A stretch of DNA of 24,000 bases, taken from positions 8,024 to 32,023 of the forward strand of contig NZ_BCVF01000035.1 in NCBI RefSeq assembly GCF_001591605.1, written 5' to 3'. This DNA comes from Bacillus badius NBRC 15713 (GTDB lineage Bacteria; Bacillota; Bacilli; Bacillales; Domibacillaceae). The notes under the pieces are model-generated. The model was not told the DNA's origin. It saw only the letters and a program-made list of their open reading frames with translations, and did not search any database. Positions 10,917-15,840 of this stretch are shown piece by piece. The first letter of the stretch is position 1, and the number at the start of each line of letters is the position of its first letter. The position numbers were made by a program, and so were the translations under genes.

Positions 10917-11598
10917 ATGCAATTTTTAACAGAAAAGCTATTAACAGGTTTGAATGAGCAGCAGCAGGAAGCGGTTAAAGCAACGGAAGGACCGCTGCTC
11001 ATCATGGCAGGCGCGGGATCTGGGAAGACGAGAGTGCTGACGCACCGCATTGCCTACTTGATGGTAGAAAAACGGGTGAATCCGTATAACATTCTGGCCA
11101 TTACATTTACTAATAAAGCGGCACGGGAAATGAAGGACCGGATTAGTGCTTTGCTTGGCGGAGCGGCGGAAGAAGTATGGATTTCCACCTTTCACTCTGC
11201 TTGTGTCCGCATATTGCGGCGGGATATTGACCGGATCGGCTATAATCGCAACTTTACGATTTTAGATACAACAGATCAGCAATCGGTGATTAAAGGGATA
11301 TTGAAGGAGAAGAACCTCGATCCGAAAAAGTTTGATCCGCGCGGCATTTTGGCAACGATCAGCTCGGCGAAAAACGAACTGATTGATCCGGAAACCTTCA
11401 GCAAGCGCCAAGGCGGCTATATGGAACAAATAGTGGCTGAAGTCTATACGGAGTATCAAAAACGCCTGAAGAAGAACCAGGCGCTCGACTTCGACGATTT
11501 GATTATGATAACGATCCAGCTATTTCAGCGGGTTCCGGAAGTGCTGGAGTTCTATCAGCGCAAATTTCAATATATTCATATCGATGAGTACCAGGACA
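10917..11598 (+). CDS. pcrA: ATP-dependent DNA helicase PcrA, exon 1 (residues 1-227 plus the first base of the Thr-228 codon)
   Basis: [48 protein letters not shown] (Walker A GAGSGKT) through ...[11 protein letters not shown] (motif II, 11583-11597). The frame then enters GTGCG at 11599 and stops 5 codons later at TAA 11613-11615. Confidence 0.92.
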
Positions 11599-12345
11599 GT
11601 GCGACACGTTGCTAATTGAAAAGATTAGCCACTAGCATCAATGCTAGGAGAACTAAGAATCCGAAGAGTCGAATGAAGGGGTAACGCCCTGAAAGGCTCG
11701 CCTAATCCTCCGAATAGCGTTCAATGGTGCAAAACATTGAGGGTTATAAGCTCGGTGAAGTCGGTTGAAGGTCATCCTAACGTGTTATGACGAGGAAAGC
11801 TCTCTGGGGGCAGAGGGTATGGCTGATAGACCGGGGTTCTACAAGACAATCTATGGTGAGAAATTAGATGTCACAGCCATCTATTGACGAAATTCCGAAT
11901 GTACGGCTCTAGAGGTATAGCTATTCGAAATGGATAGTCCTTCATGTAAGGGTTAGTGAGGTAGAGTAAAATTTGTCTTTATGAAATACCTTATGATGTT
12001 ATAGGCATCATCCAGCTAACAGGGCTAGAGGAATCACCTACGGATTGTGTATGTATAGATAGGATTCTTGGAACGTGGTAAGCCGGCAACGTGGAGAGTT
12101 TGCACTCTATGAAACGGTGGCAGGGAAAGCGCATATTTCGAAAGAATATACGTATAACCTCCTTTATGTCGGTGAAGGTGATGGCATAGTACCAATGAAA
12201 CTGTGATAACAAACAGCGGAGGGATGGCCATCAGTCAACTGTTAGAAGACGACATTATTAACACAGAATTTCAGGTTCGAGTATGACTAAGAGAAATGAA
12301 AGCTGAAATTACAGACCCAATTTGGGGATGTAAAGAGGTGAGTAA

Positions 12346-14226
12346 TTGACTGAAAACCATGCAAAGCCGAAGAAGTTAAAACGTCAAAAGCTGAGAAACA
12401 ATGAGTATTACAACACGCAGGACATGTTTGACAAGCTATATCAGCTAAGTTCGGAAGGAAAAACTTTTAGTAAGTTATATGAATTAGTCGTTCACCCAGC
12501 CAATGTCAAACTTGCTTTCCGAAACATAAAGAAAAACAAGGGAAGTAAGTCGGCGGGAGTGAACCACCACACTATATTCGCAATCGGACTCAGGAGCCCT
12601 GATACGCTTGTACAATACGTCAAAAATCGCTTAGAGGATTATAAACCTCATAGAGTAAAGCGCAAGGAAATCCCTAAACCAAGTGGTGATATTCGACCAT
12701 TAGGAATTCCCACTATCGAAGACAGACTTATTCAGCAATGCTTATTACAAGTTCTTGAACCTATATGCGAAGCTCGCTTTCATAAACATAGCTATGGATT
12801 TCGACCTCATCGGAGTCAAATCCACGCATATTCAAGGGCTGTAACATTGGCTAACAAAAACAAATTACATTATGTAGTAGATGTTGATATTAAAGGTTTC
12901 TTCGATAACGTAGACCATGGCAAGCTGCTTAAACAACTATGGACGATAGGAATTAGGGATAAACGAATACTTTCGATTATTAGCAAATTGCTTAAAGCTG
13001 AAATTAAAGGCATTGGAAAGCCTGCAAAGGAAACGCCACAAGGAGGAATTATTTCTCCCTTACTTTCAAACGTTGTATTGAATGAATTCGACTGGTGGAT
13101 CAGCAATCAGTGGGAAACATTTAAAACGAGGAAGGATCACACAAAAATGCGTGTAATCGGTGGAAAACAGCGATTTGACCAAACGGTAAAATACGCAACC
13201 CTTAAAAGGTATACCAAATTAAAGGAAATGTTTATCGTAAGATATGCAGATGACTTTAAAATCTTTTGTAGAAACCACAAAACAGCATTTATTGTATTTG
13301 AAGCTGTTAAGAAGTGGTTAAGCGAAAGGTTAGGCCTTGAAATCAGCCATGAAAAATCGAGAGTCGTCAACTTGCGCAAGAACTACTCAGAGTTTCTTGG
13401 GTTTAAATTCAAAGTAGTTCAAAAAGGGAAAAAGCGTGTTGTTAAATCGCATATGTCGGATAATTCAAGACGCAAGGTGATCGAGAAAATTAAAGCGAAA
13501 GCTGAATCTATTCGCAGGAATCAGAGTAAAGCTGAAGTGACTAAATTTAATTCGACCATCTTGGGAATCCGCAATTATTATCGTTATGCGACTCACACTG
13601 CCAAGGATTTCAGTGAAATTTCTTACTCAGTCAAGCGAATCCTGTATAACAAACTTAAAAAAGTAAAGAGCAACAAGGGGTGTATTACTCCGTTCTTTCA
13701 AAAAGCATATAAAGATTATCTGAATAAAAAGAAAATCTTTGCTTGTGGAATGATTTTATTCCCAATAGATGGAGTAAAGCATAAAAGCCCTTTGAACTTC
13801 ACTCAGGAGAAAAATTCATATACCGCAGATGGAAGAGTCTTGGTTCACAACAGCCAAGAAGCTGTACCATCCTTTATGGTGCATTACTTGATGGAGAATC
13901 CAATCAGAAGTGAAAGTATGGAGTATAACGATAATCGACTGTCAAAATATATCGCTCAACTTGGAAAATGTGCTATAACCAGTAGAGCGTTAGTCATCGG
14001 AGAAATGGAACTCCATCACAAGAAGCCAAGAAAAATGGGCGGTAAGGATACTTATCAAAACCTTATATTTGTATGTAAGGAAGTCCATAAACTTATCCAT
14101 GCGGTAAATGAAAGAACTATTAGCAAGTACCTCAACATCTTAAAGCTCAATGAGGAGCAGCTGAGTAAAGTTAACACTCTTCGCAAAAAAGTGGGGAACT
14201 GTGTAATTGATAATGTAGCGAGCTAG
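12346..14226 (+). CDS. group II intron-encoded protein: reverse transcriptase / maturase / DNA-binding / HNH endonuclease
   Basis: 626 aa, TTG start 5 nt after AAAGAGGTG. RT motifs: AFRNIKKNKGSKSAGVN (RT0), IPKPSGDIRPLGIPTIEDRLIQQ (RT1-2), VDVDIKGFFDNVDH (RT3), TPQGGIISPLLSNVVLNEFD (RT4), VRYADDFKIFC (RT5, YADD), FLGFKF (RT7). Maturase X region (ILGIRNYYRYA). C-terminal HNH (ELHHKKPRKMGGKDTYQNLIFVCKEVHKLIH). Confidence 0.93.
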   Translation: MTENHAKPKKLKRQKLRNNEYYNTQDMFDKLYQLSSEGKTFSKLYELVVHPANVKLAFRNIKKNKGSKSAGVNHHTIFAIGLRSPDTLVQYVKNRLEDYKPHRVKRKEIPKPSGDIRPLGIPTIEDRLIQQCLLQVLEPICEARFHKHSYGFRPHRSQIHAYSRAVTLANKNKLHYVVDVDIKGFFDNVDHGKLLKQLWTIGIRDKRILSIISKLLKAEIKGIGKPAKETPQGGIISPLLSNVVLNEFDWWISNQWETFKTRKDHTKMRVIGGKQRFDQTVKYATLKRYTKLKEMFIVRYADDFKIFCRNHKTAFIVFEAVKKWLSERLGLEISHEKSRVVNLRKNYSEFLGFKFKVVQKGKKRVVKSHMSDNSRRKVIEKIKAKAESIRRNQSKAEVTKFNSTILGIRNYYRYATHTAKDFSEISYSVKRILYNKLKKVKSNKGCITPFFQKAYKDYLNKKKIFACGMILFPIDGVKHKSPLNFTQEKNSYTADGRVLVHNSQEAVPSFMVHYLMENPIRSESMEYNDNRLSKYIAQLGKCAITSRALVIGEMELHHKKPRKMGGKDTYQNLIFVCKEVHKLIHAVNERTISKYLNILKLNEEQLSKVNTLRKKVGNCVIDNVAS

Positions 14227-14271: not shown

Positions 14272-14320
14272 TAAGCGGGGGAAAAGATGGAGATGATTTC
14301 AAAGTCTTACCTATCGCAAC

Positions 14321-15840
14321 CGAATAGAGCACAATACATGTTAGTGAAGCTGTTGGCCAGCCGTTTTCAAAACTTGTGTGTTGTCGGGGATTCCGATCAA
14401 AGTGTATATGGCTGGCGCGGGGCGGATATTGCAAACATCCTCTCATTTGAGAAGGATTACCCGCAATCGCGGGCGATTTTTCTTGAGCAGAATTACCGGT
14501 CAACGAAGCGGATCTTGCATGCGGCGAACGAGGTTATTAAAAATAACTTCAACCGCAAGCCGAAGAACTTATGGACAGAAAATGCGGATGGGTGCAACAT
14601 TTCCTATTTCCGCGGAGATACGCAGCAAACAGAAGCTCAGTTTGTAGCGGGGAAAATTAAAGAGATGACGGCCAGCGGAAAGCGAAAATGCTCGGACATT
14701 GCCGTGTTATACCGGACGAATGCCCAATCCCGTGTGATTGAAGAAATATTGATGAAATCGAATATTGATTACACGATTGTCGGCGGCATCAAGTTCTATG
14801 ACCGCAAAGAGATTAAAGACTTGCTCGCCTATTTGCGGCTCATTGCTAATCCGGCTGACGATATCAGCTTGCAGCGGGTTATTAACGTGCCAAAACGTGG
14901 ACTTGGCTCGACGTCTCTTGATAAAATATCACGGTATGCGCAAGAAAATGATTTGACGATGTATGAAGCCTTGGCAGAGGCTGACTTTATCGGTCTAAGC
15001 GGCAAGGCAGCAAAGACGGCCTTGGAATTCCGGCGCTTAATTGAAACATATACCCAGCAGCAGGAGTACTTATCGGTTTCTGAGTTAGTGGAAGAGGTGC
15101 TGGAGCGCACAGGTTACCGTGATATGCTGCTAGCGGAAAAGACGATTGAATCGCAAAGCCGGCTGGAAAACATCGAAGAGTTTCTTTCAGTGACAAAGAG
15201 CTTTGAAGATAATAGTGAAGACAAAAGCTTAGTAGCCTTTCTGACCGACCTGGCCCTTATTGCAGATATTGATGAAGTAGGCAAAGAGGAAAAGGTGCAG
15301 GATGCAGTGGTATTGATGACTCTCCATGCTGCCAAGGGTTTAGAGTTTCCGGTTGTCTTTTTAATGGGAATGGAAGAAGGCGTCTTTCCGCACAGCCGCT
15401 CTTTGATGGATGAAAATGAAATGGAAGAAGAACGGCGTTTAGCCTACGTTGGGATCACAAGGGCAGAAGAAGAGCTCTATTTAACGAACGCTCAAATGAG
15501 GACATTATACGGACGGACAAGCATGAACCCTGTTTCCCGGTTTATTGGCGAAATTCCGGCGGATTTAATTGATGATCTGGCAGCAGACAGAAAGGTCAAT
15601 ACGTCCTTCGGATTAAAAACACCGCCGTCCCGCCGCCCGGTGACACGGCCGCAAATCAAGACGGCCAATACAAACAGCGATTGGAAAGTCGGCGATAAAG
15701 CAACCCATAAGAAATGGGGGACAGGAACGGTGGTTAGTGTAAAAGGCAGCGGAGATAGCATCGAGTTAGATATCGCCTTCCCAAGCCCCATTGGGATTAA
15801 GCGCCTTTTAGCGGCTTTTGCCCCAATTGAAAAAGCGTAA
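14321..15840 (+). CDS. pcrA: ATP-dependent DNA helicase PcrA, exon 2 (last two bases of the Thr-228 codon through the stop)
   Basis: CG(14321-14322)+AATAGAGCACAATAC... gives [37 protein letters not shown]..., continuing through the UvrD-family C-terminal helicase motifs ([35 protein letters not shown]). The upstream [12 protein letters not shown] in the ORF track is intron domain VI read in frame, not coding sequence. Confidence 0.92.

Follow-up and report, generated by a model that had tools for sequence, protein, structure and literature searches.

A group II intron beside the motif-II codons of pcrA in Pseudobacillus badius and its relatives at the same helicase motif

In the 24,000-nt stretch of Bacillus badius NBRC 15713 (Pseudobacillus badius in what follows) analyzed here and referred to as the window (contig NZ_BCVF01000035.1, positions 8,024 to 32,023, forward strand), the helicase gene pcrA is divided by a group II intron that lies one nucleotide past the codons of helicase motif II. 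In B. subtilis, as in S. aureus, the gene is essential. We consider it very probable that the insertion (11599 to 14320 of the window) is an intact IIB-type intron, encoding its own intron-encoded protein (IEP), in the chromosomal pcrA of one P. badius sub-lineage, and that the account of its splicing and spread given below is correct as a whole. Judged by its anatomy, the element is a mobile IIB group II intron of the standard kind, and its location is what is unusual about it. What is new relative to an earlier note on this DNA, which had described the split gene, is that one helicase motif appears to have served as a long-term homing niche across paralogs and genera.

That pcrA is split at this point by a group II intron, as the earlier note had proposed, is borne out by profile models that match the intron and both exons and by the protein that the exons restore. 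Exon 1 ends ...ATC GAT GAG TAC CAG GAC A (11598), and joining it in silico to exon 2 gives an ACG threonine codon and a 2,202-nt coding sequence of 733 amino acids, with the junction ...GAGUACCAGGACA/CGAAUAGAG... (the slash marks the splice junction throughout; RNA core GGACA/CGAAU). The Pfam UvrD-helicase profile is divided 223/225 between the exons, with only the split codon missing, and exon 2 matches positions 225-271 of that profile together with UvrD_C and PcrA_UvrD_tudor. The spliced product scores 1170.6 bits against TIGR01073, the pcrA equivalog model (cutoff 911.2), and falls below the respective cutoffs of the UvrD and Rep models. Exon 2 could also be aligned to Geobacillus stearothermophilus PcrA (1PJR; DEYQDTNRAQY), and the alignment of the whole spliced protein runs gap-free across the junction. 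No indel or frameshift at the junction was found in comparisons with orthologs and with intron-less alleles, and no decay of the intron-bearing copy is seen in its sequence. The predicted product of the joined exons is a normal PcrA. The boundaries given earlier (the end of exon 1, the GTGCG start, the end at 14320 and the CG at 14321) all hold to the base, and the length of 2202 nt or 733 amino acids, which had been called normal for PcrA, was reproduced on recomputation.

The insertion has the boundaries and the catalytic core of a group II ribozyme. It begins GTGCGAC at 11599 (GUGCG) and ends ...CCTATCGCAAC at 14320 (AAC, with a 3' AC), in agreement with the consensus 5' GUGYG and 3' AY. 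Over the entire 24-kb window, Rfam returned two group II models and no others: RF02004, which covers part of domain I (Table 1), and RF00029, which covers domains V and VI (14236-14320; 61.4 bits, gathering threshold 40) and ends exactly at the proposed 3' splice site. Across 27 related introns, compensatory double changes occur in 15 of the 27 base pairs of domains V and VI and essentially none is broken; in the window copy, none is. The domain VI stem covaries, and its bulged A, invariant among the 27 introns, is the presumed branch point (A14313). To all appearances, the window ribozyme is intact.

The exon-binding sites (EBS) of the intron, which pair with intron-binding sites (IBS) in the exons, were located by the complementarity of each intron to its own exons in an alignment of 46 related introns. 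The EBS1 position of this alignment gives perfect 6-nt pairing in 25 of the 46, and one relative, L003, carries the compensatory variant CGUCUU. In the window, EBS1-IBS1 consists of five Watson-Crick pairs and one G.U pair, and EBS2-IBS2 of four Watson-Crick pairs and one G.U pair. The EBS3 column, to which G12028 of the window belongs, can form a Watson-Crick pair with the base that opens the 3' exon in 93% of the 46 introns. Because EBS3 covaries with the 3' exon while the base adjacent to EBS1 does not, we assign the intron to the IIB type; a IIA-type delta-delta' pairing was rejected, the base 5' of EBS1 being T in nearly all introns regardless of the 3' exon. An alternative EBS2 at 11920-11926 (GCTATTC; GGTACTC in L003) was tried against exon GAGTACC and set aside, as it leaves a C.C mismatch in the window and falls outside the cluster of family complementarity, and 11914-11918 was preferred. 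Elsewhere in the intron, positions 12189-12196 read AUAGUACC, which is kept in L003 and has the same sense as the exon GAGUACC near IBS2, possibly by chance.

The IEP appears to be complete, with reverse transcriptase (RT), maturase and HNH regions. A Shine-Dalgarno sequence (AAGAGGUG, 12333-12340) precedes its TTG start, and the protein matches Pfam RVT_1 (129.7 bits) and, at residues 553-585, HNH (26.9 bits, cutoff 21.4) as well as TIGR04416, a curated model of group II RT/maturases (328.7 bits against a cutoff of 300). It can be aligned to the solved group II RT/maturases 7UIM, 6ME0 and 5G2X with YADD in register; similarity to these PDB maturases does not discriminate between a bacterial class B and a chloroplast-like assignment. 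Its relatives among the matches listed come mostly from Bacillota, with a few from other phyla, and class B introns are described in a passage of PMC4424553 as restricted to Firmicutes.

Without splicing, translation of exon 1 would end at an in-frame TAA, leaving a 232-aa open reading frame (ORF), and annotation programs pick up a second ORF of 517 aa (14287..15840) whose ATG lies within domain VI behind a run of G (window 14277-14289). One could therefore imagine that PcrA is made as two polypeptides of 232 and 517 aa that assemble with no RNA splicing, given that both ORFs exist and that the second ATG follows a sequence resembling a Shine-Dalgarno element, GGGGGAAAAG (GGGGG). We regard this as highly improbable. 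In all relatives the run of G forms the conserved 5' strand of the domain VI helix, so that its likeness to a Shine-Dalgarno element is probably a by-product; the cut would fall within domain 1A directly past the Walker B motif; several relatives are annotated with other starts or with no exon-2 gene at all; and the exact guide pairings and conserved ribozyme would be left unexplained.

Intron-less alleles, which the earlier note had suggested looking for in related genomes, exist within the species itself. P. badius strains represented by L083 and L088-L091 have an uninterrupted pcrA whose sequence across the junction equals the joined exons exactly; the empty site in L083 reads GATGAGTACCAGGACA/CGAATAGAGCAC and corresponds to the window minus 11599..14320, free of any indel. 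An uninterrupted 733-aa pcrA is present in several P. badius assemblies, the complete chromosome CP082363.1 among them, and P. wudalianchiensis, the closest named relative, has an intact 733-aa PcrA. Among the intron-bearing strains, IEP copies occur as three protein variants, all within pcrA, and the exact IEP is found in one place per assembly. The idea that an intron was misjoined into pcrA during assembly draws on the general tendency of multi-copy introns to break or misjoin assemblies, and many metagenome contigs do end within the intron; yet identical junctions recur in independent P. badius assemblies (three genomes at NCBI and several from Logan SRA) and in two complete chromosomes, one of Niallia sp. 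(CP162613.1) and one of Heyndrickxia coagulans (CP076597.1), which leaves a chimera with a negligible probability.

The intron-bearing alleles form a single clade, with 0-7 differences per 2,202 exon nt and 0-6 per 2,722 nt of intron; in ligA, differences are about as dense. They differ from two intron-less lineages by 26-37 exon nt but merely 2-4 amino acids. The simplest history compatible with these alleles is a single insertion in the ancestor of the intron-bearing strains followed by vertical descent. Exon changes that arose within the clade, hence after the insertion, comprise six synonymous and one conservative replacement (D to E). Since they are almost all synonymous, pcrA is evidently still under purifying selection, which in turn suggests that the gene is still expressed and provides the best available argument for splicing. 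An intron that is stably inherited beside the Walker B motif of an essential helicase would have to splice efficiently.

These observations bear on the view that the insertion has turned pcrA into a pseudogene in the strains that carry it, with the intron left unspliced and another helicase or a suppressor compensating for the loss. NCBI pipelines do label the locus a pseudogene or fragments, and in B. subtilis recFOR mutations suppress the lethality of pcrA loss. Against this stand the intact exons of all four sequenced intron-bearing variants (4/4), the near absence of replacements after insertion, and a ribozyme, an IEP and guide pairings that are all intact. Moreover, the arrangement is kept in at least four other genera, with open exons whose products are 45-88% identical to P. 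badius PcrA, which would be unexpected if the gene had died repeatedly. We judge this explanation very unlikely, although somewhat less so than a two-polypeptide PcrA.

A spliced and functional pcrA can be reconciled with the anatomy of the intron by way of textbook group II intron biology, from which the following steps are taken. The intron would be transcribed within the pcrA message, presumably together with pcrB and ligA, and ribosomes on unspliced RNA would terminate at the in-frame TAA that follows five codons of intron sequence. The IEP would be translated from domain IV and would aid folding of the ribozyme; EBS2, EBS1 and EBS3 would pair with exon GUACC, AGGACA and C; and the bulged A14313 would attack the 5' splice site, after which ligation of the exons would recreate the ACG (Thr) codon and the 733-aa PcrA. 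The homing site would be the DNA of motif II, namely the codons for D-E-(Y/F)-Q-D together with one base of the codon that follows, and movement presumably proceeds by reverse splicing and target-primed reverse transcription that use the RT and HNH domains.

The window intron is not alone at this motif. A scan of genome representatives gave as its best IEP match, among the matches listed, a protein of Niallia nealsonii (63% identity) whose intron interrupts addA, directly downstream of addB, at ...LLIDEYQD/V/NLVQES, the homologous position in a paralogous superfamily 1 (SF1) helicase. P. badius does not figure among the matches listed, which by itself carries no weight, its intron-less alleles having been shown directly. 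This intron has EBS1 CGUCUU and EBS3 A, changes that compensate for the replacement of the Thr (ACN) by a Val (GUN) codon. In metagenome contigs, the junction pattern GAYGARTWYCARGAYNGTGYGAC was matched 45 times, and about 29 of these matches continue into the 5' domain of this intron behind a DE[YF]QD motif; the remaining 16, which lack the intron 5' domain and are ordinary or unrelated sequence, were discarded. The metagenome hosts include pcrA (its products sharing 45-88% identity with P. badius PcrA), addA-like genes and further genes for UvrD-like helicases. As a check not conditioned on the motif, IEP homologs were also picked by sequence alone and their encoding sites looked up afterward: all five with available DNA (5/5) lie at the motif-II site. 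They come from Niallia sp. JL1B1071 (IEP identity 90%), Bacillus salipaludis (80%), Heyndrickxia coagulans CP076597.1 (59%) and Metabacillus fastidiosus (58%), each in pcrA, and from Tissierella (60%), in addA with a DEFQD variant.

IEPs at the motif-II site are at least 58% identical to one another and at most 52% identical to those of introns at other sites. We define a family by an IEP that clusters with these proteins, insertion after DE[YF]QD plus one nucleotide, and the guide UGUCUU/GGUAU; the window intron has the identical site and guide, and its IEP is 58-90% identical to those of members. The motif-II introns would make up one, apparently undescribed, family homing to DE(Y/F)QD in pcrA, addA and related genes, and such a range of hosts would follow from the motif II that SF1 helicases have in common. 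To judge from pairwise identities, movement between helicase paralogs is recent in places: across their full 2,685 nt, L003 (addA) and L123 (a different UvrD-like gene) share 99.1% identity, and the ribozyme parts of L092 (full length, pcrA) and L104 (ORF-less, addA) are 99.3-99.9% identical. Pairwise identities of complete introns and IEPs were used here because a neighbor-joining tree built from the 5' regions cannot be trusted where a contig breaks off within the intron. At seven loci (L104, L111, L119, L120, L122, L131 and L132), the motif-II site of pcrA, addA or another UvrD-like gene contains a shortened, ORF-less intron of 800-930 nt. Some are 99-100% identical to full-length introns in their ribozyme parts (L092/L104, L094/L111), and all would need a maturase supplied in trans.

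Two further features of the metagenome contigs deserve mention. Many stop 80-350 nt inside the intron (L093, L107, L110, L113, L115, L116, L128 and L129), as expected if near-identical copies, for example in pcrA and addA, share a genome and interrupt its assembly. In L096, exon 1 ends VLVDEYQD and resembles AddA (41% identity over 102 aa), whereas the 1,569 open codons beyond the intron, which reach the contig end, do not; either an uncommon fusion protein or an assembly error may account for this.

How mobile the intron still is in P. badius is a separate matter. It might have become a domesticated, splicing-only element, immobile in this species, with an IEP that acts as a maturase only or is decaying, and it may in that case modulate PcrA levels. 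The single copy per assembly, always in pcrA, and the strictly vertical inheritance within the clade fit such a view, as do the ORF-less kin in pcrA and addA (L111, L119, L132, L104 and L120), which show a drift of the family toward splicing-only forms. A further point in its favor is the pattern of IEP change within the clade, where four non-synonymous changes (N53K, S113N, E229G and D568N, in comparisons of the window with L084 and L087) stand against one synonymous change; the contrast with the exons has a Fisher p of 0.07 on small numbers, and the IEP may be under relaxed selection in P. badius. On the other side, the 626-aa ORF is open in all P. badius variants with YADD and HNH kept, and the family has moved between genes recently. 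We consider domestication possible but doubtful, and continue to favor a complete intron that is capable of both splicing and movement.

The IEP changes are among several observations that weigh against this preferred interpretation. The EBS2-IBS2 helix measures just 5 bp, and two G.U pairs occur at the P. badius site. A plasmid search with the IEP retrieved thousands of group II RTs, none above 55% identity, and a scan of viral contigs for the junction pattern gave 0 matches. Finally, the HNH region does not show the paired cysteines that we take to be typical of LtrA-type endonuclease (En) domains.

Examination of the guides across the family offers an explanation for the G.U pairs. EBS1 and EBS2 are nearly constant over the helicase motif-II family despite synonymous differences among the targets. 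In 79 of 80 readable cases, the guide base is a G facing the third position of GAY or TAY codons or a U facing that of CAR or GAR codons, and T occupies position -2 of the target at 28 of 30 sites, although a guide A would be its Watson-Crick partner there. Non-degenerate positions, by contrast, covary as Watson-Crick pairs (-1/EBS1 as A-U or G-C, +1/EBS3 as C-G or U-A), and in Tissierella addA a Tyr-to-Phe codon change is met by EBS2 GGAAU. The two G.U pairs at the P. badius site would accordingly be present because its intron bears the generic guide of the family. In the wider clade described below, 19 of 44 pairs that face third-codon positions are G.U, compared with 5 of 88 elsewhere (Fisher p = 4e-7, with the introns related and the counts therefore non-independent). 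We advance tentatively, at slightly less than even odds, the proposal that the pcrA intron belongs to a IIB lineage adapted to coding genes, whose guide reads an amino-acid motif rather than one DNA sequence. G.U wobble would let one guide RNA recognize every synonymous version of E-Y-Q-D, and would allow the intron to home into pcrA alleles that have diverged between genera and to jump among SF1 helicase paralogs. Such a guide could be an adaptive design for spread or, equally, the state that an intron reaches neutrally after residing in coding sequence for a long time. Wobble-tolerant guides suggest a simple route, at the RNA level, by which a retroelement may track a conserved protein motif.

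More distant relatives, with IEPs 42-57% identical to that of the window, also reside inside ORFs at recognizable conserved motifs (L034/L035/L041, L059, L078/L081, L012, L015/L033, L077, L006, L051 and L053). Their hosts, confirmed by Pfam on in-silico spliced flanks, are a RecJ-type DHH protein (YGDYDA/DG), DNA polymerase (Pol) III alpha (PDIDL/NFSGEYQ and YQ/EQVMQI), NrdD, a type IV secretion system coupling protein (DEFG/T), a RecD-like helicase (HKSQGS/E), a topoisomerase Toprim domain, a lysozyme/NlpC-P60 protein of an integrative and conjugative element, and an SNF2/ResIII helicase. Within the set of 46 related introns, 33 have open frames on both sides, and 29 of these 33 split a codon after its first base (phase 1; binomial p = 1e-10). 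A stop in the host frame occurs at intron nt 15-17 in 20 of 30 phase-1 introns, with the codon varying among TAA, TAG and TGA, and this early stop may limit the entry of ribosomes into the ribozyme. Two related introns (521-3124 and 3254-5925) lie 130 nt apart in L049, apparently in one lysozyme-like gene, and double 5' or 3' matches in L011, L014, L019, L062 and L073 possibly reflect tandem or nested copies.

Bacterial group II introns are said to avoid housekeeping genes (PMC4424553, PMC2504315); according to the sections of PMC4424553 cited here, they lie mostly outside such genes, cyanobacteria and the chloroplast-like and mitochondrial-like (ML) lineages providing most of the exceptions, and the reviewed exceptions include Azotobacter groEL and Geobacillus recA. 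The earlier note had called a case such as pcrA rare, which agrees with the literature, but the case is not unique: besides many contigs from metagenomes, a minimum of four further named Bacillaceae have related introns at the same pcrA site. Its choice of precedent, the recA intron of Geobacillus kaustophilus (Chee and Takami, 2005, as cited in PMC4424553 and PMC2504315), is indeed a cited case, and, as those citations describe it, this intron also encodes an IEP, lies in a chromosomal Bacillaceae repair gene and must be spliced for the host gene to function. It differs in gene and site, and in the parts of these papers that cover it no same-motif family in paralogs is described; the two introns are set apart by their descriptions only.

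Somewhat closer published cases are found in the Bacillus cereus group, where IIB-class introns interrupt polC, radC and mutS-family genes and a uvrD/rep-family helicase gene, a distribution called intriguing (Tourasse and Kolstø, 2008; PMC2504315). These introns too are found in Bacillaceae and in conserved DNA-metabolism genes, including a UvrD/Rep-family helicase, and relatives of the window intron likewise occupy Pol III alpha genes. Within the portions of that text available to us, pcrA and the insertion position are unnamed, and neither motif-level targeting nor movement between paralogs is described. The plasmid-borne B. cereus-group introns, with IEPs about 50-54% identical to that of the window, fall outside the family. 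A full-text literature search found no paper that joins group II introns to pcrA, addA, DEYQD or B. badius; its coverage was incomplete, so that this is absence of evidence only.

Comparison with other well-described systems places the pcrA intron further. Ll.LtrB, the retrohoming model from the ltrB relaxase gene of L. lactis, shares with it an RT-maturase-En protein, EBS/IBS targeting and residence in a DNA-processing gene, and the LtrA structure 5G2X is a detectable homolog of the window IEP. Ll.LtrB, however, is a IIA/ML intron with delta-delta' pairing on a conjugative element rather than in an essential chromosomal gene, whereas the window intron is of IIB type with EBS3 covariation and an invariant base 5' of EBS1. 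The groEL intron of Azotobacter (Ferat et al., 2003; Adamidi et al., 2003, in PMC7306698 and PMC4424553) resembles it in its essential host gene and genus-wide spread but, as those sources describe it, lies in the stop codon and leaves the frame uncut, unlike the pcrA intron, which cuts the frame by a catalytic motif. Inteins and group I introns with homing endonucleases (e.g., PMC4760082) similarly target invariant catalytic motifs that are hard to mutate and common to species and paralogs. They do so by protein splicing or by group I ribozymes and DNA endonucleases, whereas here an RNA guide would read codons. The use of a motif as a niche parallels these elements.

Interruption of pcrA also has consequences for annotation. 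The earlier note had expected automated pipelines to report a pseudogene or helicase fragments, and so it proved: at L001, L137, L138 and L140, no pcrA is called, and in other records the fragments are named separately. NCBI names for the fragments include '3'-5' exonuclease' (517 aa) and truncated 'UvrD/PcrA' (500 aa), and the affected exon-2 proteins are WP_082028259.1, WP_082831355.1 and KIL72392.1. Pipelines mislabel or drop pcrA and addA in this way even in the complete Niallia sp. and H. coagulans genomes, so that an essential gene can look absent or broken. Natural P. badius strains with and without the intron constitute a test system for the cost and control of bacterial splicing, and introns of the family might supply gene-targeting reagents whose guide logic is already known.

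The surroundings of the split gene are those of an ordinary chromosomal locus (Table 1). The order of genes is the Bacillus-type yerB-yerC-pcrB-pcrA-ligA-yerH (camS), and pcrB-pcrA-ligA synteny is present at all related loci.

Table 1. Coordinates of the pcrA locus and its intron, numbered from the first nucleotide of the window.
Feature	Position	Strand	Remarks
pcrB (heptaprenylglyceryl phosphate synthase)	10189..10881	+	NF003197, 389 bits; upstream gene of the pcrB-pcrA-ligA cluster
pcrA exon 1	10917..11598	+	227 codons plus first base of the Thr codon; Pfam UvrD-helicase positions 1-223; 3' end is motif II DEYQD
IBS2 GUACC	11588..11592	+	Pairs with EBS2; family covariation
IBS1 AGGACA	11593..11598	+	Pairs with EBS1; 5' splice site directly after 11598
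Group II intron, 2,722 nt, IIB-type	11599..14320	+	Rfam matches; exactly missing from alleles L083, L088-L091
In-frame TAA	11613..11615	+	Five codons inside the intron; ends unspliced translation of exon 1 (232-aa ORF 10917..11615)
Domain I segment	11648..11845	+	Rfam RF02004 (group-II-D1D4-5), 177.5 bits, gathering 34.5, full model 1-201
EBS2 GGUAU	11914..11918	+	Directly after conserved GUCUAGA; same in nearly all family members
EBS1 UGUCUU	11974..11979	+	Loop ...GUAAAAUU[UGUCUU]UAUGAAA
EBS3 G	12028	+	Pairs with C14321, first base of exon 2
IEP, 626 aa, TTG start	12346..14226	+	RT (YADD), maturase/thumb and HNH endonuclease regions
Domain V	14238..14271	+	34-nt catalytic hairpin with CGC triad, invariant G.U pair and 2-nt bulge; RF00029 and covariation
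Domain VI	14275..14317	+	Bulged A14313, 7 nt from the 3' splice site; single-sequence fold
pcrA exon 2	14321..15840	+	CG finishes the Thr codon; runs through the stop; C14321 is IBS3
ligA (NAD-dependent DNA ligase)	15849..17867	+	NF005932, 955.7 bits; gene downstream of pcrA

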